From NCBI GenBank assembly GCA_049999805.1, contig JBNGIO010006161.1, positions 124,001 through 168,527 on the forward strand: a stretch of DNA of 44,527 nt. Reading direction: 5' to 3'. Source of the stretch: Folioceros fuciformis (Eukaryota). This document shows positions 1 to 41,802 of this stretch, piece after piece. Positions within the stretch are counted from its first letter, which is position 1, and every line of letters begins with the position of its first letter. Below the pieces are notes generated by a model that searched no databases, was not told where the DNA came from, and worked only from the letters and a program-made list of their open reading frames with translations. A program made the position numbers and the translations under genes.

Positions 1-465
1 AGATCTAATGAGGTCATGCAACTGCACCAAGTTCCTTGCGATGTGGATACAGTTCAAGTGTTCGTAACTGACCTTGAAGCTTGCGCACTGGCTGTCTACT
101 TGTAGTCTGACAGAAGAGTGCACTTTGACCTGCTGGACAGTAGTAGTGGTAATCCTCTTGGCTTAACTTGGCTTGTATCTTTGCTTCTGCCAGGTGGATG
201 GCAAGCAACTTGAAGTAAAGTGACGATGCTCAGCTGGGCCATGTGTCCAGCAAAGGCTCGGACTGTGCATGTTCAGCTTGCAATTGGCTGCAAGAAAGTA
301 GTGACCTGGACGGAGCTGATTAGTCATGCACGCATGCCCAGCAGCGACTCGGCCAAGAGTGTGTGTTACGTGTGGAGAGATCAAGATGAAGACGTTTACT
401 TCTCTTACAATTTTGGACTTTTTTTCTTGGGGGAGGGAAGTTGGGCCAGAACAATAGTCTACAGT

Positions 466-2273
466 TCACATAGACTTCTGTTCTTGTCTTTGCATACGGC
501 AGAGAGAACAACCAAGGCATGCCTCCTGGCCATTTGGGGCATGGACCAAGCCCAAGGGACAAGAATCAGGGCCTGGACAACTCCTCATATACGTCTTGGG
601 ATCCATGCACTTTTCTCTAAGAAGGTGACAATCACTACAGTAATGGACAGCTCCACGGCAAAAACGAGTAGCCACGGAGCAGCAATACCTGCACTTGAAT
701 TCGATGTAATCAGTTCCATGGCCTTTTACCCTGCATCGGTCATGGCCGGTTGCTGCAGCAAAGCAGTGGGTACACTTGAGCTCGCGCAGATCATAATCGG
801 CCCCCCTGCACAGTCAAAGTTGAATAGTACCAGTGCAAGCTCTCAAACGACTTCACCACCAGAAGATCTGAATCAAACAAGAAGAGAGACCTGCAAGCAA
901 ACAAAGTACGTACCCTTCGTCTACCGCCCTGCAGTTCCGAACACCACCAAAATATGGCTTTGCGCACTGAGAGCACAAGTAATGATGATACGTCTTCATG
1001 ACATCAGTCACCAACTCCTCGCCTATTTCTACCTGAAGGCCGTTGTCATCCGACTTTCCTCGCTTCCCCTTCGTCATGAACTCCATCGTGAGCTGCTCCT
1101 TTACCATCTCCTTGATCTGAACAGCCAAACGTTTCAAACTGAGCTCTCCGTGCATGACAGATGAACGAGTATTGCCAATCCCCAAGAGCGAGGCATGCAT
1201 GCGCGTCTGGAAATACCCGCCCTCGCAGCGTCTCGTGTCCCTTCACAAAAGGTTCCAACGCGGGATGCCTCATGACTTGCAGACAGACCGGACAGTCGAG
1301 GAAACCGAAACTGATTTCGGGGCCCGGATATCCCAGTTTTATCTTCAGCTTCGAACAATGGAAGTGCACGATATGCCCGCAAGCCAGCAGTATAGCAGGT
1401 GCTTGCCTGACGGGATTCAGCATACATATCGCACAGAGCTCGTCCCCGGACGTGAAGAACTTCTGCGCCGCGCACGGATCTGAGAAGCGACAGCCATCCT
1501 ATGAGGAAGGAAAGCTGTCAGATACAGTTGTCCGCCATACCTACCTACCACAGCACTGCACTGCACTGTACTGCACTGCACTTTGGCAACGCAAAAAATC
1601 GTCACCCGGGTTACCGCAATCAAATCACCTCTAGACAAGGCAGGCAGGAACGCTCCCCGCGAACTCCTCGGCATCGATGCCCGCATCCCAAATTCCGTGC
1701 ACATGTCAGCTTCAACAGCTCCCTGCACTCCGATTCCGAGCACACAGCCGCAGCAAGATTCAGAACCTGCAAAAAGTCCCTCCTTTGCCCACACCAGGAG
1801 ATATCCATGCCGATAGTCAAAAGCTTGCGCTTAAGCTCCCACAGCGACATGGCTTCCAATTCTTTCAGCCTCTGACTCTCAGCACGGGAAGAACGAACAA
1901 TTAGCTCACAGAAGAGGCACTTGATGTCTGATATCTCCTCTGGGAGCCTGTCAGATCTAGGCTCACACTCGGGCTGCTCGCCAATTCCCCCGACACCGTC
2001 CTGTCTGCCTTCCACCTCACTTTCAGAATCGCTCCCCGCAAGCCCACACTGCTGGCGTGCCAACCGTGCCAGAAATTTTCCACCATCGCGATTGCTTGAC
2101 GATCCATTCTCACAGCTCTGCATGCAAAGGCAGCGACTCAAGCTCCGGAAGGAGCAACATGGCATGCATGCAGTTGCATCAATGTGCGCCCAACAGCAGA
2201 GGATGTGATCCCACACACGGGACATCCCCGACGTCACGTTTCTCTCACGCCTCGTATCCATTTCTCCCACCAT
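466..2273 (-). CDS. Stand-alone MYCBP2/Highwire/RPM-1 (PHR)-type RING-Cys-Relay E3 ubiquitin ligase, ~490 aa, at least 4 exons
   Basis: Manual splicing gives exons 2273-1629, 1498-1217, 1116-914 and 805-466, all with GT-AG introns and consistent phase. The protein reads ...VCSESECRELLKLTCARNLGCGHRCRGVRGERSCLPCLE / DELCAICMLNPVRQAPAILLACGHIVHFHC..GPEISFGFLDCPVC (RING-H2) / [83 protein letters not shown]. This is colinear with the recalled MYCBP2 C-terminus ([102 protein letters not shown]). The 5' exon may hide one more intron. Confidence 0.9.
1553..1582. repeat. (CACTG)n pentanucleotide microsatellite in an intron of the RCR ligase gene
   Basis: gcactgcactgcactgtactgcactgcact lies inside intron 1499-1628. 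Confidence 0.8.
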
Positions 2274-2991
2274 CTTCTCCACGCCTCACTGCCTGCGCTT
2301 CGCTTGACAGCTGTGTGCCTTATTTTTTGCGAGCCTTCAGCTTCTTCCGCTTCAACGCACCGTCCCCGACTCCATTTGTTTCATATTTAGCCTTTTGAAA
2401 TCAACACATTTTCGGTGGTCTCAGGATGACATTCGTTTTCCGTGCTTTCATTAAATCCAGTAACTAAGACATCATGCAGTAAAATTTTTAATCTAAATAT
2501 TTAATGGGGATAATCATTTTGTAAGCGTTTCTTCTGCTACTACTGCTTTTAACTTCGTGTTTGTACCACCACTGAAGTTGGAGCCATTGCTTAAGTTCGC
2601 TCCTGTCATAAAGAAATTCATTACCACACATTCAGAGTGCAGTATTTCGTACAAAGTAATATACAATCATCAAAATCGCACATTGTTATTAGGCGAGGCA
2701 AAGGAGCGCGCAACTTCGTCCTTAACAAAACAAGCCAAAGGAGCAAACCTTCCTTTCCCCTATGCAATGTGTACCTCATCAAAATTGCAGAAGGAACTGT
2801 CATCGAAGCTTCCAAACTTCTCCGCTCCAGGGTCCTCCACCAATCCCTTTGTGGAAATGCTAGGAGTCGGACCCGCAAGATGAACGCATGCTTCTCCGCA
2901 GCAGAAGACTCCTACCCATCCTACTCCAATGAGTCACCTGGAATTTCTCTTCCCCCCAAAAAAAAAGAAAAAAGAATTCGCCTGAGTCTCC

Positions 2992-5900
2992 TCATGAGGC
3001 CCTTCCACCCCTGTGACCCTTGCTTCTCTTCTTCAATGGCTTGTCGCCACCCGTTCCACGCCCTGCTTTCCCGTTCGACCCGCCTCCCTTCCCGAAACCG
3101 GATTCACCCGCTTTTCTATCAGCCCGTTTTCTCTTACCATCGTTCTTGCCGTCTCTCCGGTTCTCAGCAGGTCCTGTGATGACGTGCTTATTTCGACCGT
3201 TCTGGTTGAAAGCAGGCCTTGGGCTTTTAGCTGAGCCTTTGTGCTTGAAAGCAGGCCTTGGGCTTTTATCTGAGCCCTTCTGCTTGAAAGCAGGCCTGGG
3301 GCTTTTAGCTGAGCCGTTCTGCTTGAAACCAGGCCTGGGGCTTTTAGCTGAGCCGTTCTGCTTGAAGCCAGGCCTCGAGCTCTTTTGACGCTTAGCTTGG
3401 GACTTGATTTTCGTCCGTTGCCTGTCCTCGTCTTCTTCACTTGCGGCCTGATCTTGTGTGTCTGAGTCACTTCCTCCCATCTCATCCTCAGAGGACAGGA
3501 GAAGATCCTCAACGATATCATCCTCGTCCTGTGCTGGAGAAGAGCTTGGTTTACTCGACATGGCTACCTCCCCGCTGCATGAATGCCGTGCGACATCAAC
3601 ATGATGAGAATACTGTACAATTAGACACGAGCAACAGACAGGAGACCGTGCACGGGACACGGAGACCGTGCACGGGACACAGAGACCGACTTACTCGCTG
3701 CTTTTCTTCTGTGGAAGCCAGTCTTTACTGAAGACTTCCTCCCCCACGTCAAGCGCTTCGTCGTCCCCGTCTTCCGCATCCTCAGTTGCAGGTGCTGTAT
3801 CTCCAACAACCATGCTGCAAAATGGACCACATTAGTACCGTTTCAAACAGGAACCACAATTAAGTGGAAACCAACCGAAGAAATACCTGGATGTCTGGAG
3901 GTTCTTTTCTCTATCTGCTGCTCGTTGCCGGAGCTGGGCAGCATACTGTAATAGAGGACTTGCGCCTGATTTCTTCTCATCCTGTTCATGGTAGTGCAAC
4001 AGTGAGATATGTACGAAGGTGGCTAGCCTACGAGAAGCCGAAATAGGGTCCACAAACCTGAAGAAATGCAGTCACACCAGGAATGTCCTTTGGGGATATT
4101 GTGACTTTTTCTCTCTGTCTTTTGACAAACTCAACGTTGCGGTCTATCTGGAAAATGCCAACCAAACCATGAGACTTGCATAAGATCACCAACATGCCCA
4201 ATGTCCACCCTCTGAGCCAGAGATTACCTGTTCAATCAGCTGTTTGATATGACGACGGAACCGATCTACACTTGTCCCTTTCAGGAATTTTTTCAGGTGA
4301 ATTACGGGAACCACAGCGAGTTCAGGGAATGCAATTGCACAGCTCCACTGAGCAAGATGCTCCACAAGCTGGTCGACAACACGGAATACACATTCCTCAT
4401 GGAAACCACGAGTTTTCAACATAGGCTTCGGTACCTGCAAAAAACGTTGCAGCAAAGTCAGTGCATGAGCGAATAACAATACATCCCTCCTTAGATCAAC
4501 ACCCATTGCAAGCAGAATCATCAACTGGCACAGCAAAGTATTCGGGATCAGAGATCAGTGCAATATGACATGAGATCAAACCTTCAGAGCCAGGGAGAAA
4601 TCAAAAGCATTTCCTGCCCCACCAGTTGGCGGCACGTACAGCTCCTTAAATTGCAAGATGTCCATGAGCAGTGTAGAGACTGGAATGTAAGAGCCAGTAG
4701 AAGCTGCAAGTCTGTTCAGAAGCTTGACACACTGAAGCCTCAATGGGAAGTACCGAACAGTTGGTACAAGGCGAGCAACTCCAGTTATAATCTGGGCTAC
4801 AGGGTATACAAGAGGGCGGAGGTCCTCCTTGTCGGAGTATGTGCACAGAATGTTGACCCACACTTCAAGGCAGTTCATGTATTGCCAGCGATAAACAGAC
4901 TTGAAAGAATCCTGCAGAAGCTATCACATCTTAGCCTTTGGTTTCGGAAAGCATCTGCTTTAGAAACACTTACACCACTTACAGAACGTACCTTGGTCTT
5001 CATGGTAAAGGCCTTTCTCAAAAGTATAGCCAACTGCCTAATGAACACGAAAGCATGCTGGTAGGAGGCAGCCAAGTCTAGTCCATACAACTCTACGACA
5101 CAATTAGCCATGAAGCGAATCTGAGGAAGCCTGGTGGAATTCACAAATCTGGAGTTGGCCGCATACTCCTTGTAAATGCCTTTCAGACATGCATCTAGAT
5201 AATCAGTCCCAAGCTGCATAGCCATTTCTCTAATAAAAAGCAGTGAGATCACTGGCAATGCTCCTTCACTGGTGCCCCAAAAGTGTAGAGCCGCCTGAAA
5301 ATCCCAAGCCAGCCAGAGATTTTAGGATTATGGACTGACGTGGCTACAAAGTACTTGCTTCAGCATGCTAGCAACAAGTAGATCAAACACGTCCTGGTCT
5401 GCCGTTTGCAATAGCAAGCCACTTAGTGGACCCGACTTTGGAGCAAACAAACAATTACCTTCAGATAGAGACGTGCAAGCTTTGGGAAAGCTGCCAAGAA
5501 AGGCACTGAGACTTTGATTCGCCTCAAAGTGAAACCTATCATTTGATTATCAGACATTTGCTTCAATATGTGGTGAGCATTTCCAAGATAGGATTTCAGA
5601 AGGGGTTCAACTTTCTTCCACTTCGAATTCTTTTGATAATCAAGCGCCGCCATGTGCCTCCCGCTCTTTTTCTCAGTCACATCTTCATAACCCAGCGTCT
5701 TTTTGAAGACACCATCCATCTCAGAGAGGACAAATAGCATGATCTTATTGAAAACATGACTGCTTGCAACATTGAACGTGGAGGCAAGGTCCTCATCCTC
5801 TCCATCACCGTAGTGACAAGCACTACGGAAGGCGCGGAGCATGTTACGAACAGCTCCCATGTGCTGCTTCTCTTTTATTGCCTTGCTCCAAGCATCGACA

Positions 5901-7105
5901 AGTGCAGTGGACAGCACAACTTGTTCATCAGCCTGCTTCTCAACAGCTTTTCCTCCTGCATCCGCAGCTACTTGATCCTCATCCTCAGCTACTTGATCGT
6001 CATCCTCTCCACTCATACCCTGAACAAGAAAGCACATGCACACGATTACAAGGCTGGGAAGGGTTACAACAACCTCTTCCAAGGGTGCGTAGACAGCTAG
6101 CTTGCCTCCGCTTCGTCGTCTTCAAACTCAAGCAGTTCATTGTCATGCTCCTGCAGAAATTTGTAGAATTCCGGGTCCTGAAAGCAACGAGTATTTTAGC
6201 ATGTTATAACCTCCAAGACAATTTAGCACGACAACGGGGCCACCTCCTGAAAAACGTCACCTTTTGCTTCAGCTTCTCCAGATCCTTCTTGTGTTTGTTG
6301 GCTTCTGACCTCAACTTTTTGTTCTGTGCACCCAGATTCCCTTCTTCCTCCTCATCTGTTAAGATTATGCACATATCACTAGTTTATGGTCTGGGTGAGG
6401 AGAAAAGAGAGGCCAATGAGACGCAACCCATGAGACGCACATGGCCTTGACGAATATGACAGGGAACAGCAGCAAGCCAACCTTCAGAGCTCTCCTCCTC
6501 AGCAGAATTAGGTGTGATATCGACAAAATCATCATTATCGCCCTGCGATAGAGAAAAGGATAAAAACCACATGTCACCCCAAGTGACTCCTCACCAGTCC
6601 GAAAACAGAGCTTCATCCTACCCACCATACCTTTTCTGGAGGAAGGTCCACATCGTTAACATCCTCTTCATTCAGTTCTGCCTCATCATCACTTGACGTC
6701 TCAATAAAGTCTCCCCGCAATAGCTCATCGACGTCCAAATCCTCCACTTTCCTGTGACGAGGTAACAAACACATCGCATCAGACAACGGAGATTGTTGCT
6801 CATGACGTTCTTTCGGATAGCCAAGGTAGGTTCATACTTTGCTTTGACGTCGCCTGCACCTTCTGCAATCGATTCGGATGACCGTTCCAGCCTTTTCCCT
6901 TCTGCTCACAAGGCACCACCCCCAGACCTGAGCGGGGGCAAAAACAGCTAAACTTGTCATACCAGTACTCGCAACAACACTAACCTGCAGCAACCTGTTT
7001 CCGTCGCAGGGCATTTTTCATAGGCTTCAGCTTGCGCCGAACAGCCAGAGCAGATCCCAGCTGCTTCTTGATGAATTTCCTGGTGCTTTTAGCGGGCTTC
7101 CCCAT
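2992..7105 (-). CDS. NOC2: Nucleolar complex protein 2 homolog (Noc2 family), multi-exon
   Basis: ATG at 7105 gives MGKPAKSTRKFIKKQL..RRKLKP. Noc2 motifs are spread over exons: HKKDLEKLKQK/DPEFYKFLQEHDNELLEF, RAFRSACHYGD, YQHAFVFIRQLAILLR, LRPLVYPVAQII..YFPLRLQCVKLLNRL, WSCAIAFPEL and DEDDIVEDLLLSSEDE. A basic tail ends at the stop at 2992. Confidence 0.92.
3190..3384 (-). repeat. Coding minisatellite, 5 x 39 bp (13-aa KSPRP[GA]FKQNGSA), in the last NOC2 exon
   Basis: Units at 3190-3228, 3229-3267, 3268-3306, 3307-3345 and 3346-3384, all in frame in ORF 2992..3660. Confidence 0.92.
3641..3688. repeat. 20-bp tandem duplication, probably intronic in NOC2
   Basis: ggagaccgtgcacgggacac x2, followed by a partial copy (agagaccg). 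Confidence 0.8.
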
Positions 7106-8863
7106 TGTGGCAGCACCGCTCTTCACTGCTGGTGCACAAGCTTGAGACGAAAATCGTACCGAACAATTTTAGGTCTCCGAGCTCACGGTCCCCACAGGAG
7201 ATGTGAGCAGGAACGCAAGAACATTACATAATTGCGCACCAGGCGTGAAGTTCAGGAGATTTCGTTCGACCTCTTGACGCTCGTTGGACCCCTTTGAGAT
7301 GGAAGGACGACTGCCCTACCCTCCCTGTGACCTGCCGTCACAAGAATGCACTACCAGTGAAGCTCGGAATATATGTACGTAACGAAACCCCTATAATAAA
7401 TTGGGCAACTGGCCGTGTAAGAAGGCACTTGTTCAGAATAAGGACTTCGCCGTCCGGTCGATGATCGGGGAGAAGAGGGAAGGCAGGGTGCTGCATACCT
7501 TGAAGAAAGGAGGAATTGCTGAACGAAGTTCATCCAAGAGTTCTGTGGACGTGGAGCAGCAGGTCGGGTTTCAAGTGACACTTTTCCAAGGTCCGGATTT
7601 CTATCTTGATAGCAAGCTGTGTCTCTCCACCTCAATGTACAAGGGGTGTGATCCGGCCAGGTGCAACATGGGGTGATATTTCTTTCTGCACCTGAGCGGC
7701 ATCGAAATCGGCACTGAGCAAATGTTCCCGTTCGAAGATGTTGTGATCCGTTTAGAGAATTGAGTGTTGTCGCATCAGCCTTGGAAGGGATTGTTAGGAT
7801 TATAACCAAGTCTAGATGTGAATCAATCAGAGTGACGCAGGGGAAGTAAGTATGGCTGGCCCTCCATTGATTGTGAGAGCTTGATCACCTCTTTTTTCTT
7901 TCTTTCTTGGCTCCAATCCTAGCAGCGTAGTTCATGATTGGGGTGGACGGGTGGAGAGATTTTTGACAACAATCGTCATTTCTTCCAGAGTGCCCTTGCT
8001 TGAGTTCCAGAAAGCTCAAAATGGCCTGCATTTCTGTATTTATGCACCACTGTTCAGCAGGACAGGAAGGAATCCCTGCACACCAGGGCATCACTGTGTA
8101 GGGCTGCATGAAGCCCGGTGTGCCGTGAATAGTGAGATCCACCTGTTGTTGAGTTCCAAGTCTCAGATCTCTGAGCAACCACCCTGAATTGGAGGATTGG
8201 CGGCAAGTGTCTGTTTACATAGCTACATGAACCAGGTAGGTATGCACTGTTAAAAGAAAAATTAAAAAAGAAAAGAAAAAAGACGTAGACACATATCATT
8301 GGACGCTGCTGGAATGTGACCCAACAGACCCCTGCCTGAAAGGGACGAGAAAAGGTGAGAGGAGCGTGAGGAAAATGGGGGACGTCGCTCTACGTCCAAC
8401 CACAGCAAAACGCAAAAAGGGAAAGGGCCCTGTTCACACATGCACAAAGCCCGAGATAGGCATGTGACTTGTATTTGGACAGGTGCGTGTCGTCGACATA
8501 AAAACATGCCAGCAATTTGCCACATAGTAGCAAATGAGGAGGAAGGGGGTGTTCCACCTGAAGGTCCGAAGTCGTAGGCCTCCGAAAGGTCGTGCGAGAG
8601 GTGGCCTTCACGATGCACGAACTGGGAGGCAGGCCAGGGCCAGGCCAGGCCAGGCAGCGTCGGGTGTGTGTCCCTCTCGGACCCCGAGCAAAGCGTCCAA
8701 ATATGAAACCGGCGCGCGCCATAGCCGCCGATCCGGCTCCATCTCCAGCTTCAGCTCCAACTGTTGGCTTGTCTTGCTCCCGGCGCTGTGGTTGTTGTTG
8801 TTGCTGCCGCTGCCATGATGTGACAAGGCCTGCGTAGGGGCCGAGAGCTCGCGGTAGGCGGAG

Positions 8864-11800
8864 ATGGCCGAGAGCGGAGGATGGGACGACGACGAGGAGG
8901 CCCCGCCGGCGCTGCGGCAGGTGATGCAGGAGCTGGCGGTGGCGTCCCCGGCGGTGCCGATGCGCATTCTGCCTGACCTCACGGAGGAGCAGTACGGGGA
9001 CGCCTTCAATCACCCGGGGCACGGTAAGGGCCCGGCATGGCTGCGACTCCGCCTGCGCGTGCTGGAGCTGGTCGGGGCCTGCTCAACCCTAATGTCGCTC
9101 GACCTGTCGCTGTGCGACTTGACGCGGGAGGCGGAAGTGGAGACGCTCTGCCAAGGCCTGCGCTCCAACCCCGTGCTGGTGGACCTGCGCCTCAGCTACA
9201 ACTCGGGCTTCGGATCCGAGAACGCTTGCCGCCATCTCGCGCGCGTCCTGCTCTCCAGCTGCAGCCTCCAGGTTCTGCTGCTGAATGGGGTAGGGTTAAC
9301 CGCGGCTGGTTTGGCGCACATCGCCGACGCCATGCTCTCCAACGAGCACTCCAGCCTCCACTACCTCGATGTGTCGGGAAACCGGAAGCTGGGAGACGGC
9401 GGGGCCAAGAGCCTGGCGCAGGTGCTCAGCGCGCAGTTCACCGGCCTCCGCACGCTCATGATGTACGACATCGGAATGGAGCAGGCCGGTGCGCAGCAGC
9501 TCGCCAGGGGATTGGTGAACAACACTACCCTCAAGGAGCTCTTCGTCGGAGACGAAGGATCGGGCTCTTCTTGTAACGGCATGGCTCCCGGAGCGCTCAC
9601 CACGCTCCTCCGGGCGCTGGCTAACCCTGGGCCTCTCGGGGACGACATCAATGTTTCTCCTAAAGCTAATCTTGTTACAGGCCCGTCCCACTTGGACATG
9701 CTGCACCAGAACACCTCCATCACCACCTTGGACCTGGTGCTGGCGGACGAGAAGGGTTTGGGTGCCACGGCAGCCAGGATGCTGCGCACCAACAGCTCGC
9801 TGCGATCGCTCTCGCTGCGCCATAGTCGCTTCTCCAGGATGGAGTGGCGGAACCTCTTCAGATCGCTGCACAGGAACACCACGCTCGAGTACCTCGATCT
9901 GCACAATTGCAAGGGCCTCGATAACTCGCTCTTCACCGAGCTCATGGAGCTGCTCGAGGTGAACTCGTCGCTCAAGACCATTAATTTGGAGTGCACCCCG
10001 TGGAACAACAAGGCCAAGTGGATCATCGAGCTCCTTCAGGAGCATACCCTCATGGACATGCTGCATGTGGAGGCTTCCAGGGACGACGTCGTCGGCGATG
10101 ATGCAGCCAGTTGCAAGACAGACGGCAAGGAGGCTGCGGAGAAGGAGGCTCTCAGGCGGAATGCGAACCAGGCCGCATACCTGGCTGTGCTCAGGGAGAA
10201 GCTGCGGTTCGTGGCGCCCAAGGCAGGCCGCCTCTTCATCTGCGGCTCGGGCATGGCAGGTCTGTATTTACCCAATCCAATTGCACACTTTCTTATCCAC
10301 ATTCATGCCATGCATTCCAGGCATTCTCATCGTCTGATCCATAATCTTGTTGCTGCAGGGAAAAGTACGTTACGGAAATCCATGGTGAAATGCAGCCTGG
10401 CTTCATCTTCCTGGCTGCACAGAGTTATGTTTAGAGGGAAGTCCCTGGTGCACACCAAGCAGTCCACCTGCTTCCCACCCTGGATTAGCCGGACCAAGAG
10501 CAAGGGATATCCATCCGAGGTGGAGCTGCTCAGGGACGACGCAGAGATGCAGATTCTGGTGTGGGACATGCCAGGGCAGGCGGAGGTCCACACTCTCCAC
10601 GACTACCTCTTCCCCGACATCAACCAGCCGTGCGTCTTCGTCTTCGTCTTCAGCCTGTTCGACCATCAGACCGGGACGGTGAAGATGGAGGCGGAGACCG
10701 ATCTGGAGAGGGAACTGCAGGACTGGCTGCGCGTCATCGCCTCTAGCAGGAGCGCCAGCCACATTCCCCCACAGGTGTGCGTGGTGCTGAGCCATCTGGA
10801 CAGGGTGTCCGGGTGGACGCAGGAGAGGATAGTGGATTGGGCCAGCGAGACGGTGGACACCATGAGGGACAAGTTCCAGGGAGTGCTTGATCTCTCGCCG
10901 ACCATACACGCCGTGAATTCCTTGTCGGGGAAGAGTGTCCGTCCGCTCATGGAGCATGTCTTCGCCTGCTTCCGCGACCTGCTCTCGCACGAGCTTCCGC
11001 TCCTGCCCGAGGCGTGCACTCAAATGAGCCTGCTTCTCGCGGAATGGGCGTCCGCGCACAGCACGCACCCCATCCTGAGGGAGGATGAATTCTACTCCCT
11101 CTGCGCCAGCAAGGTGGAGGCCCTCAAACCTTTGGTGCACGGCCACCACCCGGGGGAAGACGTCTCAGAAGACGTTCGGGAGGGCAGGGAAGCGGTTGTG
11201 GCCTACCTCCACGACGTCGGCAGCATAATCCATATCCCTGACCTCAAATTCATGATCGCCAATCCCAACTGGCTGGCGCATGTGTTCCTCGGCCGCCTCA
11301 TCCGGCTGAGAGACCAGTTTCAAGGACTCGTCGACAAGAGATTCGACGGCTTCGTCTACAAGCAGGACCTCGAACTGGTCCTGGAGGAGTTCCTTAAAAG
11401 CAGCAAGTACTCCGGGTTCACCACGCAGGATCTCATAACCCTGATGCTCAAGCTGGAACTGTGCTACGAGGAGCCTGATCCCACAAACACTGATCAGGAC
11501 AGCAGCCGCTTCTTCGTTCCCAGCGCCTTGGAGGATCATAATGACAAGGCCTTGTCGGGCTTGAGGCAGCTTACATGGCCCCTTGCGCACCGAGACAACA
11601 TTACCTGCATCTACATCGGCCGCCGTCTGCAGTGCGCAGACAGGCACCGAACTGTCCTCACCGCCGGTTTCTTTCCAAGATTTCAGGTGCGCTGCAAAAC
11701 CTTTCAATGTTCGCTCGTCTCTGAATTTGCCCCGCTGCGTTGAATGCTGGAAGATGGGATGCCGTTCTGTTTGATAGTTGGCAGGTTATGTTCGCTGCAG

Positions 11801-19362: not shown

Positions 19363-21888
19363 TCACTCCAGCACCCGGCTGAGATCAACAAGTTTTGACT
19401 GTACACGTTGAATTTCAGAATGATTCGAATCTCCAGCCACAAATACATGAATTGCATCATTGTGTTCTACCCAGCTCAACCCAGGAACCTTCCAAGGAGA
19501 TACGGTCCGTCGCATATGTTCTATCTTGCTTGCATCGTCCAACATATGAGCCTGGACGTAAATGCTTGTCATCATTACATATGGTGCACCTAGTGTTGGT
19601 TCCAACTCTACAGCGCCCTCGAATGCGCGGCTTCCGAGAGCTACATTGTTGTGTTTTTGGCATGCACCAAGAAGAGATAACCAAAACGCCAGATTGGGCT
19701 TGACAGGCATTTGTGAGAGTATTTCTCCCACCTTATCAAAGAGCCCTGCACGGCCAAGAAGATCGACCAGACTCACGTAATGTTCAATCGTCCAGGGGAT
19801 GCCATGATCCCTGCTCATGCTCTCAAACACCTGAAGGCCCTCTTCAACCAACCCTGCATGGCTGCATGCTCCCAAGACAGATAAGAAAGTGACACTATCT
19901 GGGTCAACTCCAGACTGCAGCATCTGCCTGAAGCATTGCAAGCTTGTTAAACCCTCGCCTTGCTGTGCGTATGCTGCGATCAATGCAGTCCAACAGTAGA
20001 CATCACGATGCACCAAGGCATCAAATACATCCTGAGCGTGCACCAAGCTTCCACACTTGCCGTACGCATGAATAAGGGTAGTTGCCAAGCTTGTGGTGAC
20101 CTTCACATCACTTTCAAGGATCTCGTGGTGAATTTGACAACATGTTTTAAGTGCTCCGATCTGACTGGTGGCTTTCAGGATGCTGAGAAAGGTCGCTTCG
20201 TTTGGTATGACTCCGAGCCTTCGCATGTCTGCATACAGGCGCAGAGCCTGTTCGCCCTGTTCCTGCTCAGTGTAACCTGCAATCATGACTGTCCAACTGA
20301 CGATATCACGCTGAGGTAATTGGTCGAATACATGTTCTGCGTCCACCATGCTGCCACATTTAGCATACAGGTCAACCAGAGTAGCACCGAGAAACACATC
20401 GGGCTCAAGGCCACATTGCAGAATTTCACAATGGATAGCCTTTCCCTTCTGCAGGCACCCGATGCTAACTGAGTGCTTGTCCACAACCATGACGCCATCC
20501 GAGGCTACCTTGCCTCCACATGCTTTCAGCACACTAACGAAGGATCGACAATTTGCCTTCACACCTTTCCTCTGCATCACACTAAAAAGTTGCAGTGCCA
20601 TGTCAGTTTGACCTTGCAGGACATAACCTGCTAAGAGCGCATTCCATGTCACCACAGTGCGGTGAGACAGGGTGTCGAACACCTGTTGAGCATCAACCAA
20701 GCTTCCGCATCTACTATACATGTCAATCAGAGTGTTACCAACAAATACATTTGAATCAAAGCCCTCCAAAGAAGCTTCGAAATTAACCCTTTTCCCCCTT
20801 TGCAGACATCCCACTCTCACATGCTGCCCATCCACCAACTCGGGTAGCTCCTTCGCCGCAAGGCTTGCAGTAGCTTTCAGCACGCTGACAAACGTCCGAT
20901 CGTTCGGCCTCTCTCCTGTCACTTGCATCTGGGCGAAGAGCTGCAAAGCCTCCTCACCCTGGTTTTGCTGGGCATATCCCGAAATCATAGCGTTCCATGA
21001 AACTACGTCACGCTCAGGCAATGTGTCAAACGCAAAGCGTGCATCTGCCATGCTACCACATCTTGCATACATCCCGAGCAAAGAAGTGGCCACAAACACA
21101 TCAGACTCGAATCGAAATCTCACAACATCAGCATGAATCCTCTTGCCCTGTTCCACGTCCCCTAAGCAAGCACAGGCTTTCAGTAGACATACAAAGGTGA
21201 ATTTGTTGGGAGCTACGTCCCTCTCTTGCATTAGATTGTACATTACGAGCGCATCCCGTTCTTGTCCAACCTTACAAAACCCTGAGATTATGGCTGTCCA
21301 AGACCGAGCTGTGGTGTCGGGCAGCAGCCAAAAGACCTCCAAAGCATCTGAAAGACTCCCACAGTTGACGAGCATGTCGACAACCAAGTTCCCCAGATAG
21401 CTCTCAGTCAGAAGAAGCCCATTGCTGGCCAGTAAGGCCTGAACCCGTTTGCCCTCAACCAAGGCCCTCCTTTTCGTGCACTCTTGTATAAGGCACGCAT
21501 ACGTTTGCAACGAAGTTACACTGTCCAGCGGCTCCAAAGGCTGCAGAGCATTCAATGCCTCCAGCAGACGTCCATCCCGGCACAATCTCCCAATCTCCTC
21601 CCATGGTCCCAATTCTGCTGGCGAGCGCTGTGACTTGCCACCGTTCAGACATGGGCGAGAGGTTGGTGTTCTGCAATGGTCACAATGCCTAGTTCTGGCT
21701 GAGATGCCCTCAGGGGACGGCTTAGAAAGTCCTGAATTCTGCTTCTGAACAAACGGCCCAAATTCAAAAGCCGCACACGTTAGGGTTCCGTGGTTGTAGA
21801 CCGGGTCATGCACGCAGGGACCTGATAAAGCAATCCTCCACCCCAGAACAGGGTTGCTACATTTTGCAAACCCCCAAGCCGAAAGCAT
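19363..21888 (-). CDS. PLS-class pentatricopeptide repeat protein, E+ type (no DYW domain); organellar RNA-editing factor family
   Basis: Intronless ORF with first ATG at 21888. It has repeated P-L-S triplets (VVSWNAMISGYAQ, FVSVLKAC, VFVGNTLIDMYSRCGSL), then P2-L2-S2, E1 (FWLSLLGACQKH), E2 and a PG box (KVPGLSWVE..HVFVAGD.NH), followed by a stop. Confidence 0.92.
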   Translation of the reverse strand: MLSAWGFAKCSNPVLGWRIALSGPCVHDPVYNHGTLTCAAFEFGPFVQKQNSGLSKPSPEGISARTRHCDHCRTPTSRPCLNGGKSQRSPAELGPWEEIGRLCRDGRLLEALNALQPLEPLDSVTSLQTYACLIQECTKRRALVEGKRVQALLASNGLLLTESYLGNLVVDMLVNCGSLSDALEVFWLLPDTTARSWTAIISGFCKVGQERDALVMYNLMQERDVAPNKFTFVCLLKACACLGDVEQGKRIHADVVRFRFESDVFVATSLLGMYARCGSMADARFAFDTLPERDVVSWNAMISGYAQQNQGEEALQLFAQMQVTGERPNDRTFVSVLKATASLAAKELPELVDGQHVRVGCLQRGKRVNFEASLEGFDSNVFVGNTLIDMYSRCGSLVDAQQVFDTLSHRTVVTWNALLAGYVLQGQTDMALQLFSVMQRKGVKANCRSFVSVLKACGGKVASDGVMVVDKHSVSIGCLQKGKAIHCEILQCGLEPDVFLGATLVDLYAKCGSMVDAEHVFDQLPQRDIVSWTVMIAGYTEQEQGEQALRLYADMRRLGVIPNEATFLSILKATSQIGALKTCCQIHHEILESDVKVTTSLATTLIHAYGKCGSLVHAQDVFDALVHRDVYCWTALIAAYAQQGEGLTSLQCFRQMLQSGVDPDSVTFLSVLGACSHAGLVEEGLQVFESMSRDHGIPWTIEHYVSLVDLLGRAGLFDKVGEILSQMPVKPNLAFWLSLLGACQKHNNVALGSRAFEGAVELEPTLGAPYVMMTSIYVQAHMLDDASKIEHMRRTVSPWKVPGLSWVEHNDAIHVFVAGDSNHSEIQRVQSKLVDLSRVLE

Positions 21889-23072
21889 GACAACCAAGTC
21901 TTTCTTCTGGCACGCGAAGACCACTGCTTGTCATGCCCAGGTTCAAAGATTGAGCACATCCTTCCGTCTCGTGGGAGGAAAAATGCTAGAGGATATGAAA
22001 GGAAATCTCAGACAGCCTTGGAGAATCATGTCTCAAACATGAAGGGTGGCTGAAATTTAGCAGGGTGACACAGCAATGGATGAAATGACGACCTGAAGAA
22101 CTTCTTCAGACCTCGGACACAAGATTGCACACTCGAACAATCTCAGCGCTCAGGTTCTTTCAAACATGATCGCAATCGAAGCAACAGGCCCGTCCAATGT
22201 TGAACTTCAGGACGTGAGTCCAGAGTTCAAGGAGGAAATTTCCTACTACGCATCCCACTGCCGCAGCATCCCGTCTGGCCTAGACTAAACCTCGCCATTA
22301 TCCAGGCGTGCTTCGAGCCACCATGGCAGGAGTTAGCAGACTTTATCATGAGTAGATGCAAATGCAGCAGGATACAGATGCCAGATTACCTCCAGTAAGA
22401 AACTCTGTCTAGGGTTACCTCTTAAGGTGAAGCCCGAGTCCCGAGACACGCACTACGTACTACTTTCCGCTACTCACTTCTGGCCGGGAAGTTTTTTCTT
22501 TGCTGCAAACAGAAAGTTTTTGGTGTGTTGGAAAGCAAGCTTTTCCAATCGCACTTTATCCTTCCATGCAGGACGATCCAGCGAGAGGGCACCCGGACAA
22601 AGGGTGTAGTTGGCTATGTGGTGGCTGCATGGAGGGTGGGGTTTCCGCTTCGCCTTGGTCTCCTCGACCGACGACATGGTGACCAATTCTCTAAAAGTCG
22701 GGAGAACAGACTCAGCAAAGAACCACAGGTTGCCGATGTATAGGGGTTTGGATTGATGGAGGGATGCGACTGTTAGAACTTGTGCCGCTTGGATAGTAAC
22801 AGTCCGTTAATTGGGTTAGAAAGGACGCTGGTGATGACAGTACATCGAGTGTGGCAGTGAAGACCTGCACTGGCATACCAGCATTGACAGGGAAGGGCGC
22901 AATGCCAGAAATTGGGGCTAGAATAGTGGATCATTTGGACTAGTTGCTGCATCAGCAACAAATGCTCAAACCAGTGCACTGGACCCGACCTTTCCTCATG
23001 GGCACCAGCACTGAAGGCACTACCATACTTGTCGGTACTCTGACAATGCAAGCCGTTAGTAACAAGTTGCGG

Positions 23073-29852: not shown

Positions 29853-31767
29853 TTAGACGAAGTCATAGACTCTATCTCCGCGTAAACATAAGCCTTCCTT
29901 ACAATGGTGTACACAATGGGCATCTCTAACTGTGATCTCCCTCTTTTCAATCTTGGACAAGACCTTTGTTCTGCCATGGCAATTGTTCCACGTACGCCGA
30001 TTTTTCGTGATGGGCAAAGTTGAGGAGTGTTGAGGAGGGCAAATGCTAGGACAAGCTTCTCAGCATGTCCGCACACGGAATCGTTCTCCCCTGGTCAGAC
30101 ACTGGTTTCAGTCCCATTTCTATCTGCGGCTCGTGGCCATCCTGTATCACTTGCAAGTTCAGACTTCTAAACTTTTGAGGAGAGATTGTCCCTGTCCTCC
30201 CCAACGATGAACTCATGCAACTTGTCCACTTCGATGAAAGCTGTAGCAGGCTTGTTGTCCGCACCAGCATGTCTTTTCATTTGCTCGATTCTGTCTGCAT
30301 CTTCCTGTATTCCAACATCTTCATGGATGTTTGCCATGAGAACATAACCAGCAGCCAGTTGTGGATCGAGTGCCACGAGGCGATGGAAACACCGTCTCCC
30401 TCGCTGGACATCTCCATGAGTTTTGCACGCGCTTAGCAAGGACCTGCACCCCACAACGTCAGGTGGAAAGGCCATTGTTTGCAGCACATTTTCAGCCTCG
30501 TCCAGGTGCCCTGATCCTCCAAGAAGGTCCACGATACAGTTACAGTGCCCAAGTGTGGGTGTAATGCATGGTCGCTCCCCATTGCTGTGAAATACCTTCT
30601 GCCTTCATCCACCAGATCCACATGACTGCAGACCACCAGAAGACACTGTTAGGCTCAACGCCATGCCGGTGTATCTCATCGAAACACTGAATTGCCATGC
30701 CACAATCATTTTGCTGACCATAGCCGTTACGGAGTGCTGTCCACGTTGTCACATCTTTAGCAGGCATTCTGTCAAACACAAGGCGCGCGTCCTCCATGCT
30801 GCCACATCTACCGTACATGTCCACAAGTGTGTTCCCTACGAATATGTCTCCCTCCAGACCTCTTGCCTGTACATCAGCATTAACTTCCTTGCCCTTGTCC
30901 AAGACTCCTACATAACCACAAGCCTTGACAGCACATACAAATGTAACATCACTGGCTGGATTGATGTCTTCCTGCTGCATGCGCACATAGAGATCAGGAG
31001 CATCCTGACCGCGCCTATGCTGCACATATCCGGCGATCAGCACTGTGCATGTTACGACATCTGTGAGCGGCAGAGTGTCAAACACTGCACGAGCATCATC
31101 TAGGCTCCCACATTTAGTGCACATATCCACGAGATCACCACCTATAAACACATCTGCTTGCACCCCCACTTCCACAATGTTAACATGAATCCGCTTCCCT
31201 GTTTGGATGGCAGGTACTCCTAGGCTCCCACAGGCACTCAGAATGCTGACATATGTAACCTTGTCTAGTTTCACACTACCCTCTGGCATCCTGGCATACA
31301 GATCGAGAGCCTCCTGACTACGCCCATCATGAGCATAGCCTGCAACCATCGTGCCCCAAGCTATCACATCACTGGATGGCAAGCTGTCAAACACAGTCCG
31401 CACGTCTAGTAAATTCTTGCATTTGGAGTTCAGGTTCAGGGTTCAGTGCATACCCACTTTCCACTGTGAGCGCATGAACCCTCCTACCAAGATCCGGATC
31501 TCTCGTCTCAATGCATCCCTTGAGAACCCGATACAACATGTCTCTAGTAATCCGATCCAGTTGCTCCGCAAGTTCCAACACTTGCACGGCCTCATCCGCC
31601 CTTCCCCCATCACATAGCCTGCTCCAGGTCTCCGCAGCTTCTTCATTCCTCACCGCCCTGCACCGGACATCCGGTGCATAGCACCATGTAGCTTCTTGCG
31701 CTCCAACTCTTGAATCCAAGAAACGGGGAAGCAAATGAAGCCTCAAAGGATGAGAAATACCTTCCAT
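29853..31767 (-). pseudogene. PLS-PPR-E-DYW pseudogene with a DYW:KP-type domain
   Basis: PLS repeats in ORFs 31387-31896 and 30540-31403. E domains read DLLGGSGHLDEAE..SLLSACKTHGD. Then KPATAFIEV..HEFIVGE, DGHEP, CGHAEKLVLAFALLNTP and, after a frameshift, TKNRRTWNNCH..KIEKREITVRDAHCVHHCKEGLCLRGDRVYDFV*. Frameshifts at ~31400, ~30640, ~30540, ~30080 and ~30020, and a stop at 30167. Confidence 0.88.
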
Positions 31768-39245: not shown

Positions 39246-41802
39246 ATGACATCCTTCGAAAATGTCATGTTCAATATCGAAAAGATATGGTACTAACTTC
39301 CCGTTCTGGAAAGAACAAGTGTACAATGTTCTAGTGTAGAAGAAGCCAATCAAGCCGATAAAGTTGCTAGGAGTGAAACTTGTTAGCATGACTCAGGATG
39401 AGTGGCAGGATCTAGACGAGCTTGCTAGGTCTACCATCATCCTAACATTGTCGAAGTCGATCTACTTCAACGTGAAAGACAAGCCCACAAGCTACGAGCT
39501 ATGGCAGAAGTTGTGTGACCTGTACGAGAAGCAAAGTGCAGCTTCTCAGGTGTACTGGTTGAAACAACTGGTGGACTCGAAGATGAAGGAAGGGACGAGG
39601 ATGTCCGATCATCTGAACGAGTTCAATACCATTTTCAGCCAGCTCTCATCTCAAGGTATCTCGTTTCCAGATTCCGTGAGAGCTATGTTTTTGTTGGTCA
39701 CATTACCAGAGAGCTGGGACACCTTTTGTACAGCTCTGAGTAATTTGGCTCCCGCCAGTGGTCTTACCATTGTAAATGTAGAAGATAGTCTGTTAACAAA
39801 GGAGGTGAACAGGAAGAATATGGAACCTTCGAAAGGTTCCAATGCCCTCATGGTGAGAGGAAGGTCCATTTCAAAGGGGAAGTACAAGGAGTGAAGTTCT
39901 TTCCATAGTAAATCTCATAGTCGTAACAATGTTGAGTATTACCATTGTCACAAGAAGGGTCACATCAGGAAGGACTACGAGAAGTTCAAGAAGGACAAAG
40001 GAAAGGAGAAGAAGCAAATCGACACCAAGGCAAGTCCGAGTACCAAGCCTAACGAGGTGAATTTTGTTGACGATGGAGATGTTCTTATCTCTTCTTGCTT
40101 CGATTTTGCACAATTGACAGTCGTGGATAGTCATTTGTTCTCTAATTGGATAATTGACTCTGGAGCATCTTTCCATGTTACTCCGCATAGGGAGTGGTTT
40201 AGCACTTATGATGCTACTAGGAAAGGATGTGTTCAGCTTGGAAATAACTACACGTGCGAGATTGCAGGCGTTGGTGATGTGGAGCTGAAGTTCCACAATG
40301 GATCTTCATTCACATTGAAGGATGTTAGGCATGTTCCAAAGTTGACAAAAAGCATGATTAGCGCAGGGCAGTTGGATGACGCTGGCTACCACTGTTGGTT
40401 TGGAGATAATTCTTGGAAGGTCTCCAAAGGTTCTCTTGTGTTAGCTCGTGGATCGAAGTGTGGTACTTTGTACTCACTTTAGGTAACCACTGTCAAGGAT
40501 CATGTGATTTGTGTAATGGAGCAGCTAAGCGTTTCCGTGTGGCATAGTCGGTTAGGACATATGTCTCAAAAAGGAATGAAGATCTTATCTCGTTTTGGTT
40601 ACATCCCTGCTTTTGACTTCTCCGATTTCTCCGTGTGTGAGCATTGTTTGTATGGGAAACAGATGAAGTCACCACATGGAGCAAGAGGTAAACACAAAAG
40701 TAAACCTTTTGAGTTGGTTCACAATGACGTGTATGGACCTATGCCCACTGTATCGTTAGGCGGTGCATCTTATTTTGTCAATTTCATTGATGACTTCTCA
40801 CGCAAGGTGTGGGTTTATCCTTTGAGGAAAAAGGATGATGTTCTGACAGTGTTTCAGAAATTCGTCACCCTTGTGGAGACTCAATCTGGCCTCCGACTGA
40901 AGTGTCTAAGGACAGACAATGGGGGAGAGTATGTCTCGAAGGCTTTCCAGTCATTTTATGATTCCAAGGGAATCAAGAGAGAATTGGCTGCGCCGTATAC
41001 TCCTCCTCAAAATGGTGTGGCTGAACGGATGAACAAGACCATCCAGGAGAGGATGCGTAGTTTATTGTCAAACTCTGGATTGCCTAATGGATTTTGGGCC
41101 GAAGCAATGGCTATTACGGTGCATCTTATTAACAGATCTCCTCACAGGGCTGTGGATGAGCAGGTTCTTGAGGAGATGTGGTCTGGAAAGAAGCCGTCAT
41201 ACAAGCATCTACGAGTGTTTGGCTAAGAGGTATACTACCATGTTCCTAAGGAGTTTCGGGACAAGTTGGCACCCAAGTCCAAGAAATGTATTTTTCTTGG
41301 CTATGGTGAATCTGGTGAGATGGGATACCGTCTGTGGGATCGAGAGGCCAAGAGGATGGTTCGTAGTAATGACGTGTTCTTCAATGAGACCAAGATGCAC
41401 AAGAAGCCTACTGCAGATGTGGAGGTGCGACGAGTGGTCTTCGAAGAAGATGGACTTGACCGTCCTGCGCAGGTTGAACGTCGTGATGTGTAGGAACAAG
41501 TTCCTCCACTTGTACAAGAGGAGAGAGTGCAACCAGCTCCGGTCGAGGCGCCATTGCTTCATAGGTCAGGAAGGATCTCACGTCCTCTTGACAGGTATGT
41601 TGCATCTCTTGATTATGTCATGCTGACGGATTGTGGGGAGCCCTCTTGTTACCAAGAGACCATGTCAGTGACTGACAAGGACAAGTGGGAGAAAGCGATG
41701 CAGTCGCAGATGGATTCACTCCACAAGAACCAAACTTGGGAGTTGGTTCGGTTGCCTAAGGGCATGAAGGCGTTGCCATGCAAATGTGTGTATAAGATGA
41801 AG
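39246..41802 (+). mobile_element. Ty1/copia LTR retrotransposon gag-pol (Tnt1-like), degenerate and 3'-truncated early in RT
   Basis: gag: FNIEK..NFPFWK, LWQKLCDLY, KMKEGTRMSDHLNEF, LLVTLPESW. Degenerate zinc knuckle YYHCHKKGHIRKDY. Protease WIIDSGASFH. Integrase WHSRLGH..CEHC, VHNDVYGP, FIDDFSR, LRTDNGGEY, YTPPQNGVAERMN. RT start WEKAMQSQMDSLHKNQTWELV..PCKCVYKMK, then abrupt loss. Several stops and frameshifts. Confidence 0.95.

Follow-up and report, generated by a model that had tools for sequence, protein, structure and literature searches.

The RING-Cys-relay (RCR) ubiquitin E3 ligases, which possess an EC 2.3.2.33-type catalytic module, are best known from animals, where the class is represented by MYCBP2 and other PHR proteins (Pam, Highwire and RPM-1; PDB 5O6C and 6T7F). 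According to two reviews, ubiquitin-charged E2 (E2~Ub) binds to the RING domain of MYCBP2, ubiquitin is transferred to a first Cys and is then relayed over ~24 Å to a second Cys, and this second Cys, which belongs to a Cys-His-Glu triad, mediates the esterification of Thr/Ser with the assistance of a hydrophobic pocket (PMC9527308, PMC9120709). MYCBP2 is also described as having no lysine activity (PMC9527308), and in the reviews consulted RCR ligases are handled as a one-protein class. Here, we analyzed a stretch of 44,527 nucleotides from the genome of the land plant Folioceros fuciformis (contig JBNGIO010006161.1, positions 124,001 to 168,527, hereafter the window), in which an initial annotation made from the letters of the DNA had placed a gene for a stand-alone ligase of this class. 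We consider it probable that the predicted 489-amino-acid (aa) product is a stand-alone RCR-type ubiquitin E3, belonging to a clade of MYCBP2-RCR homologues from the green lineage, within which it evolves fast and has a shortened N-terminus, and that it would be active via Cys371 and then Cys426, with substrate recruitment and acceptor preference unlike those of MYCBP2.

Gene structure and the RCR module

All coordinates are window positions, and the gene is read on the minus strand; the model was derived from stop-to-stop frames and from a minus-strand reading of 1-3000. Joining of the four exons across three introns, all of which are GT-AG, yields a spliced coding sequence (CDS) of 1470 nt with an open frame of 489 aa and one stop, at its end (Table 1), and an in-frame stop at 2286-2288 is found just 5′ of the ATG. 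The initial annotation had described an intact spliced gene with a full RCR module at 466-2273, encoding ~490 aa and having its two relay Cys codons at 931-933 and 658-660, and all of this was correct.

The predicted protein has the same module order as MYCBP2, namely a pre-RING Cys cluster, a RING-H2 domain, a helical linker and a tandem-cysteine (TC) domain. The exon translations were searched one by one by phmmer against 177,635 PDB sequences: exon 4, which encodes the TC half, matched only MYCBP2 (6t7f and 5o6c, E 3e-21), exon 2, which encodes the RING, matched 5o6c_A with an E-value of 5.2e-14, and exon 3 gave a match to 5o6c that was weak (E 0.05) yet precise over the YFGG...C stretch (index 120-145), which ends at the upstream Cys. 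Judged by sequence, the matches of exons 4 and 2 to MYCBP2 are far beyond chance. In blastp searches, a 4,673-aa MYCBP2-like protein was 37% identical to the spliced product over 329 aa (E 8e-58), and for the best homologue of plant type the identity was 43% over 373 aa, with homologue alignments spanning residues 108-484. In Pfam, only the RING could be detected (zf-RING_2, E 2.3e-6) and the TC part had no matching model, which probably explains why the deposited plant relatives carry names such as "hypothetical" or "RING-type domain-containing". The structural model for the TC domain covers exon 4 only; this AlphaFold2 (AF2) model, built from a 42-row alignment, has a predicted local distance difference test (pLDDT) score of 85, and its only matches in the PDB by Foldseek at E ≤1e-3 are 5O6C (E 2.5e-8, TMq 0.64, 112 columns) and 6T7F (E 7.8e-8).

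In the alignment to chain 5o6c_A, Cys371, Glu385, Cys426 and His437 occupy indices 143, 157, 195 and 206, with 14 residues from Cys371 to Glu385 and 11 from Cys426 to His437, so that the relay Cys pair with Glu at +14 and His at +11 had been read properly from the beginning. Addition of 4377 to the chain index, an offset inferred from the 263-residue chain, gives C4520, E4534, C4572 and H4583, which we take to be the MYCBP2 numbers of Pao et al. 2018. All four aligned positions carry the residue types expected. Conservation of these sites in the relatives is high for the upstream relay Cys (Cys in 150 of 159 non-gap relatives), the downstream Cys (184 of 186) and the His (182 of 189), and of the 167 relatives without a gap in the Glu385 column, 100 have E and 51 have D; the two Cys and the His are all retained in 143 of 212 domain rows, most of the others being gapped fragments. 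In a 31-row alignment, the Folioceros protein keeps 63 of the 68 columns conserved at 85% or more and all 38 conserved Cys/His columns. The latter include the nine conserved Cys/His columns of the pre-RING cluster, where 28-30 of the 30 other rows (long MYCBP2-like proteins included) have the consensus residue, as well as all the C3H2C3 columns of the RING. With a RING directly 5′ of a TC domain, the TC sequence and fold, both Cys residues and the triad, the predicted protein has the features of the RCR family, and its catalytic module is a plain homologue of the known one.

What differs is the rest of the protein. MYCBP2 has a length of ~4,600 aa, as against 489 aa here, and its RCC1-like, PHR, RAE1-binding, FBD1 and Myc-binding regions have no counterpart in the Folioceros protein, which instead possesses a SAP-like segment and a disordered N-terminus. 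Thus, the features of a full-length PHR protein (RCC1-like, PHR, FBD1 and Myc-binding regions within ~4,000-5,000 aa) are not present, and the earlier remark that the RCC1-like, PHR and FBD regions are missing holds, considering that Pfam detects the RING only and that the first 110 aa are predicted to be disordered.

An alternative is that the product is a conventional RING E3, which would transfer ubiquitin directly to lysines and in which the TC domain would serve as a zinc-stabilised scaffold or a substrate-binding module. The RING-H2 domain is complete, and most RING proteins activate E2~Ub for direct transfer. However, the two non-ligand Cys residues, the His and the Glu are conserved throughout the family, which is hard to explain without catalysis, and MYCBP2 itself is reported to be without lysine activity (PMC9527308); we therefore regard this alternative as quite improbable.

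Proposed mechanism

Activity and ester specificity are predicted here by homology. In an RCR-type reaction, the RING-H2 domain (C237-C287) would bind E2~Ub, and ubiquitin would be transferred by transthiolation to Cys371, which is located on the loop after the YFGG motif. Ubiquitin might then be relayed from Cys371 to Cys426, which would form the catalytic triad with His437 and Glu385, and finally be passed to a nucleophile of the substrate, the role that Thr/Ser hydroxyls play for MYCBP2. Since the PHR, RCC1 and FBD1 regions are absent, substrate recruitment must differ from that of MYCBP2, and it would probably involve the folded zinc-ribbon and SAP-like segment (~111-205) together with the disordered N-terminus.

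Relatives, phylogeny and distribution

A HMMER pass with exon 4 against 1.84 billion cluster representatives revealed 808 proteins at E ≤1e-3 and 279 at E ≤1e-10. Only 6 of the 150 representatives listed are longer than 2,000 aa, and most have the TC domain at the C-terminus; RCR proteins of small size are therefore common, notably among protists. When the RCR region of the best match (P0006) was used as the query of a word-indexed search, 47 proteins were obtained, 18 of which are organism-named. These include green-lineage proteins from Adiantum, Ceratopteris, Ceratodon, Selaginella, Diphasiastrum, Chara (two), Mesostigma and Scenedesmus, in addition to proteins from Polysphondylium, two Dictyostelium species, Thecamonas and Hondaea and four animal fragments; no seed plant is found among the 18. 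Two further searches added little: an exon-4 word search gave 2 proteins from 11 candidates, and a search with profile A3, which saturated at 8,000 candidates, gave only 7 proteins, all already in the set, and was uninformative on seed plants. Look-alikes in the ESM Atlas, which serve as leads only, were mostly ciliate "hypothetical protein" clusters, with one MYCBP2-like mollusc cluster.

The named streptophyte relatives include proteins of 579-844 aa (the one from Adiantum being partial): LOC9631788 of Selaginella moellendorffii (P0003), O6H91_13G085400 of Diphasiastrum (P0008), KC19_2G009400 of Ceratodon (P0156), KP509_12G090100 of Ceratopteris (P0155), GOP47_0001568 of Adiantum (P0154), and CBR_g12593 and CBR_g39123 of Chara braunii. 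They belong to the same clade as the Folioceros protein and share with it the part from residue ~108 on, at 38-44% identity. The short RCR proteins of protists (Dictyostelium DDB_G0284853, Polysphondylium, Thecamonas and Hondaea) are likewise stand-alone proteins with a RING and a TC domain, 400-900 aa in length and possessing both Cys and the His; they form separate clades with 30-35% identity, and several have a Pfam IBR domain upstream. The seed-free setting that had been proposed for this ligase stands to the extent that all named green relatives come from seed-free plants or algae. Dictyostelids are unflagellated, and their homologues do not help the suggested restriction to lineages with flagellated sperm.

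A maximum-likelihood tree was built from 31 rows and 327 columns. The Folioceros protein falls inside a 15-row green clade starred in the tree (95/98), together with proteins from Selaginella, Diphasiastrum, Ceratodon, ferns, Chara, Mesostigma and Scenedesmus. The green clade is separate from the amoebozoan one (100/99) and from a starred clade (99/97) in which 8 of the 9 animal-like rows are found. Its exact sister within the green clade is left unplaced by the tree, given its long branch. The placement favors vertical descent, the question that the initial annotation had wished a phylogeny to settle, and by these sequences rejects contamination.

The origin of the gene has also to be considered from the genomic side, as a contaminant, or a gene acquired horizontally in recent times from animals or protists, might be suspected in a family known mainly from animals and with Atlas look-alikes that are mostly ciliate. 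On the contrary, the gene lies ~100-300 bp downstream of a NOC2-like gene and on the same contig as PLS-class pentatricopeptide repeat (PPR) genes with an E motif, a hallmark of land plants, its introns are short and of the GT-AG type as in its neighbors, and the GC content of its CDS (0.54) is near that of the window (0.50). In addition, the green clade is separate from the animal-like one, and sequencing run X1 holds both the gene and its neighbor with no differences. This explanation is thus largely refuted, and we consider it extremely improbable; the argument from introns and plant neighbors that had been raised against contamination is upheld by the NOC2-like and PPR-E genes, the short GT-AG introns and the green clade. 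Taken with the transcript data below, the evidence supports the view that the locus is a real, intact and transcribed nuclear gene of a land plant.

Transcript evidence

Three sequencing runs were checked, and contigs of two of them (X2 and X3) gave no alignment to 300-2700. Run X1 contains 59% of the words sampled from this region. Contigs of X1 skip 15 listed introns in the neighboring NOC2-like gene, 14 of them reading CT..AC and one becoming GC-AG, as read on the minus strand, when shifted by 1 nt, and X1 therefore derives from spliced RNA. At the RCR gene, one X1 contig matches 1783-2297 without any difference, its end lying 24 nt 5′ of the ATG. None of the 15 joints listed (two more exist beyond these) belongs to this gene, and introns 2 and 3 were judged from depth. 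The fully exonic bin 535-801 has a depth of 12.6; for the bins across introns 2 and 3, a model with exon-only contigs predicts depths of 7.50 and 7.88, and 7.52 and 7.9 were observed, a pattern consistent with the removal of both introns in RNA. For intron 1, no X1 contig was seen bridging 1499-1628. Thus, of the splicing that the initial annotation had predicted, the part concerning introns 2 and 3 fits the depth data, whereas no contig spans the junction of intron 1.

A CAGTG/CAGTA-like tandem stretch occurs at ~1555-1590 in intron 1. The depth bin 1336-1602 reaches 315, as compared with ~8-13 in neighboring bins, which is probably due to repeat-bearing contigs, similar repeats probably being present in abundant transcripts elsewhere.

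Acceptor site, N-terminal region and alternative interpretations

Several observations weigh against the interpretation of the Folioceros protein as an active RCR ligase, and the first of these concern the acceptor site. The residue directly after Cys426 is Arg427, at a site that is aromatic in 171 of 189 non-gap rows of relatives (93 rows with W, 75 with F and 3 with Y) and that holds Arg in just one other relative, P0148; in the streptophyte relatives, the catalytic Cys is followed by F, W, Y or M. At the third position past the His (His+3), Arg440 takes the place of the Phe found in animal proteins, at a position that varies across the family, with Arg also in most streptophyte rows and Trp in Selaginella. 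At Cys+6, the Folioceros protein has Tyr, as compared with Phe in 165 of 189 non-gap rows. Set against the Phe residues that we take to form the pocket of MYCBP2, the hydrophobic Thr-binding pocket described for that protein appears not to be conserved here. Because Arg427 stands beside Cys426 in place of an aromatic residue, Thr selectivity is not to be assumed, and the preferred acceptor may be other than the Thr selected by MYCBP2. Accordingly, the non-lysine ubiquitination route put forward in the initial annotation has to be worded conditionally, with an Arg after the second Cys where most relatives are aromatic. The difference in the pocket concerns specificity, not membership in the RCR family.

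The second group of observations concerns divergence and the N-terminus. The end branch of the Folioceros protein measures 1.35, as compared with a median of 0.26, and is several times longer than those of its streptophyte relatives. The other streptophyte RCR proteins share ~300 aa of strongly conserved N-terminal sequence, in which the Cys residues form RING1-like and IBR-like patterns (alignment A1); this region is missing from the Folioceros protein and present in the other land-plant and Chara rows unless these are partial. As regards the gene model, run X1 is on record only as "RNA? (a guess)", the junction of intron 1 depends on prediction and on homology across the intron, and the true 5′ end on prediction and one contig end. 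Finally, no biochemical data on RCR proteins outside animals were found in the literature searched.

According to alignment A1, homology to other streptophyte RCR proteins begins at about residue 108 and takes in the small zinc ribbon and the pair of SAP-like helices, followed by the pre-RING cluster, RING and TC domain. In AF2 models, residues 10-83 have pLDDT values below 50, indicating disorder, and residues 111-200 have values of 75-97, indicating a folded segment. For residues ~136-180, several of the 50 rows returned by VIA-align are SAP/HeH/LEM domains (Rho N-terminus, MANF/CDNF SAP, PIAS1, Hcc-1, rice SIZ1, emerin LEM and FAN1), all with Z ≤4.5, which is below the significance guidance of the tool; Pfam gave no match to a SAP domain, and the exon-1 model had no match in the PDB by Foldseek at E ≤1e-3. 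In the window, a tblastn search with P0001 found no RING1/IBR-like exon elsewhere, with the stretch encoding residues 1-110 giving only 25 bits. The upstream gene was considered as the missing N-terminus and rejected, as it is a 977-aa NOC2-like frame with its own stop at 2992.

The streptophyte RCR proteins look like hybrids of RING-between-RING (RBR) and RCR ligases. One block of their N-terminal region reads roughly GVPE.DRTAPFTE.D in P0003, P0156, P0155, P0006, P0001, P0008, P0159 and P0007 (A1/A3). Five of these proteins were scanned against Pfam and showed no IBR match at E ≤0.01; some protist relatives do have a Pfam IBR domain in the corresponding N-terminal region.

The same divergence could mean that the gene is a decaying or repurposed copy of a longer streptophyte RBR-like-plus-RCR protein, the product of which may no longer esterify and might act as a regulator, a trap for the Ub thioester or a ligase for other acceptors. 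The long end branch, the missing ~300-aa region and the Arg at a near-invariant aromatic site beside Cys426 would fit such a fate, as would an identity of 38-44% to the named plant homologues, when these homologues share 46-77% with the fern-like P0006. However, the frame is intact over four exons, the conserved Cys/His columns are kept in full and the highly conserved columns nearly so (63 of 68), and the gene is transcribed and apparently spliced, all of which points to purifying selection on the catalytic core. We consider this explanation unlikely.

A more far-reaching scenario can be offered only tentatively. An ancient compact RCR ligase may have been kept by seed-free land plants and streptophyte algae and lost in seed plants, performing a two-Cys relay onto an acceptor other than lysine, a reaction that has so far not been reported from any plant. 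The Folioceros copy would then have shed an RBR-like N-terminus, and Arg427 and Arg440, lining the acceptor site, would have shifted the acceptor, possibly to an acidic or a non-protein hydroxyl one, which might be reached via the SAP-like segment as a nucleic-acid- or chromatin-binding element. We hold this scenario to be doubtful.

Genomic context

The NOC2-like gene is situated directly upstream of the RCR gene. Its frame was assembled by splicing out 15 introns of 72-172 nt with RNA support, the protein has a repetitive, Lys-rich tail at its C-terminus, and the 3′ untranslated region contains an intron at 2603-2774 and stops ~100-300 bp short of the start of the RCR gene. One RNA-supported intron of this gene, at 6020-6105 (minus strand), has GC..AG ends in place of GT..AG when its joint is moved by 1 nt. 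Elsewhere in the window, the two PPR open frames agree with a land-plant source in which organellar RNA-editing factors form a large family, the 961-aa LRR/COR-A frame is possibly a plant ROCO-type protein, and a fragment of a copia-type retrotransposon is present. The window holds 110 N bases, none of them within 1-3000.

Table 1. Features of the RCR gene and other elements of the window (window positions)
Feature	Position	Strand	Description
RCR coding region	466-2273	minus	ATG 2273-2271, stop 468-466; 4 exons, 489 aa
Exon 1	1629-2273	minus	Codons 1-215: Cys-rich/acidic N-terminus (predicted disordered), a small zinc ribbon with SAP-like helices after it, and the greater part of the pre-RING Cys cluster
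Intron 1	1499-1628	minus	130 nt, GT-AG; contains a short CAGTG-like repeat
Exon 2	1217-1498	minus	Codons 216-309: RING-H2 (C237...C287 = 1283-1435) and start of the helical linker
Intron 2	1117-1216	minus	100 nt, GT-AG
Exon 3	914-1116	minus	Codons 310-376 and 2 further nt: helical linker, initial part of the TC domain including the upstream relay Cys
Intron 3	806-913	minus	108 nt, GT-AG, phase 2
Exon 4	466-805	minus	Codons 377-489 and stop: C-terminal part of the TC domain, esterification-site residues
Residues 1-110	1944-2273	minus	Predicted disordered; no homology to the N-terminal RING1/IBR-like region of other streptophyte RCR proteins
Helix-loop-helix, residues ~136-180	1734-1868	minus	Weak SAP/HeH/LEM likeness (VIA-align)
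Pre-RING Cys/His cluster, C178...C218	1490-1742	minus	Split by intron 1 (1499-1628)
Cys371	931-933	minus	Putative upstream relay Cys; aligned equivalent of MYCBP2 C4520
Glu385	781-783	minus	Aligned equivalent of MYCBP2 E4534
Cys426	658-660	minus	Putative downstream catalytic Cys; aligned equivalent of MYCBP2 C4572
Arg427	655-657	minus	Directly after Cys426; relatives mostly aromatic here
His437	625-627	minus	Aligned equivalent of MYCBP2 H4583
NOC2-like gene	2992-8000+	minus	977-aa open frame joined from 15 RNA-supported introns; stop 2992
LRR and COR-A open frame	8858-11743	plus	961 aa; LRR_6; COR-A sub-threshold (31.7 bits, cutoff 35.3)
PLS-class PPR protein with E motif	19363-21930	minus	855 aa, intronless
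Second PPR open frame	30540-31442	minus	Open frame
Copia-type retrotransposon integrase fragment	40483-41226	plus	gag_pre-integrs and rve matches

Novelty and implications

The Folioceros gene does not stand alone: orthologue-like proteins of Selaginella, Diphasiastrum, Ceratodon, Ceratopteris, Adiantum and Chara are already deposited as "hypothetical" or "RING-type domain-containing" proteins, and some relatives have been labeled automatically, two JGI entries as "E3 ubiquitin-protein ligase MYCBP2" and the Polysphondylium entry, by its UniRef name, as "RCR-type E3 ubiquitin transferase". In PMC6743453, Dictyostelium DDB_G0284853 is called in passing a "mycBP2/Highwire-like protein". Our searches found no literature linking the RCR or MYCBP2 class with plants; they covered mostly open-access literature, so that an earlier mention is possible, and two plant papers that mention RING-Cys-relay ligases only cite the class. 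The value of the finding is tempered by the plain homology and by the fact that automated annotation at JGI and UniRef had already noticed the relatives. Its main points of note are the apparent absence of RCR proteins from seed plants, which raises the question of why these plants appear to be without one, and the unusual Arg beside the catalytic Cys.

An enzyme of 30-50 kDa is a far easier object of study than the animal protein of 510 kDa. If active, the compact RCR protein of Folioceros, together with its unstudied relatives in ferns, mosses, lycophytes and Chara, would extend the enzymology of ester-forming ubiquitination to the green lineage.

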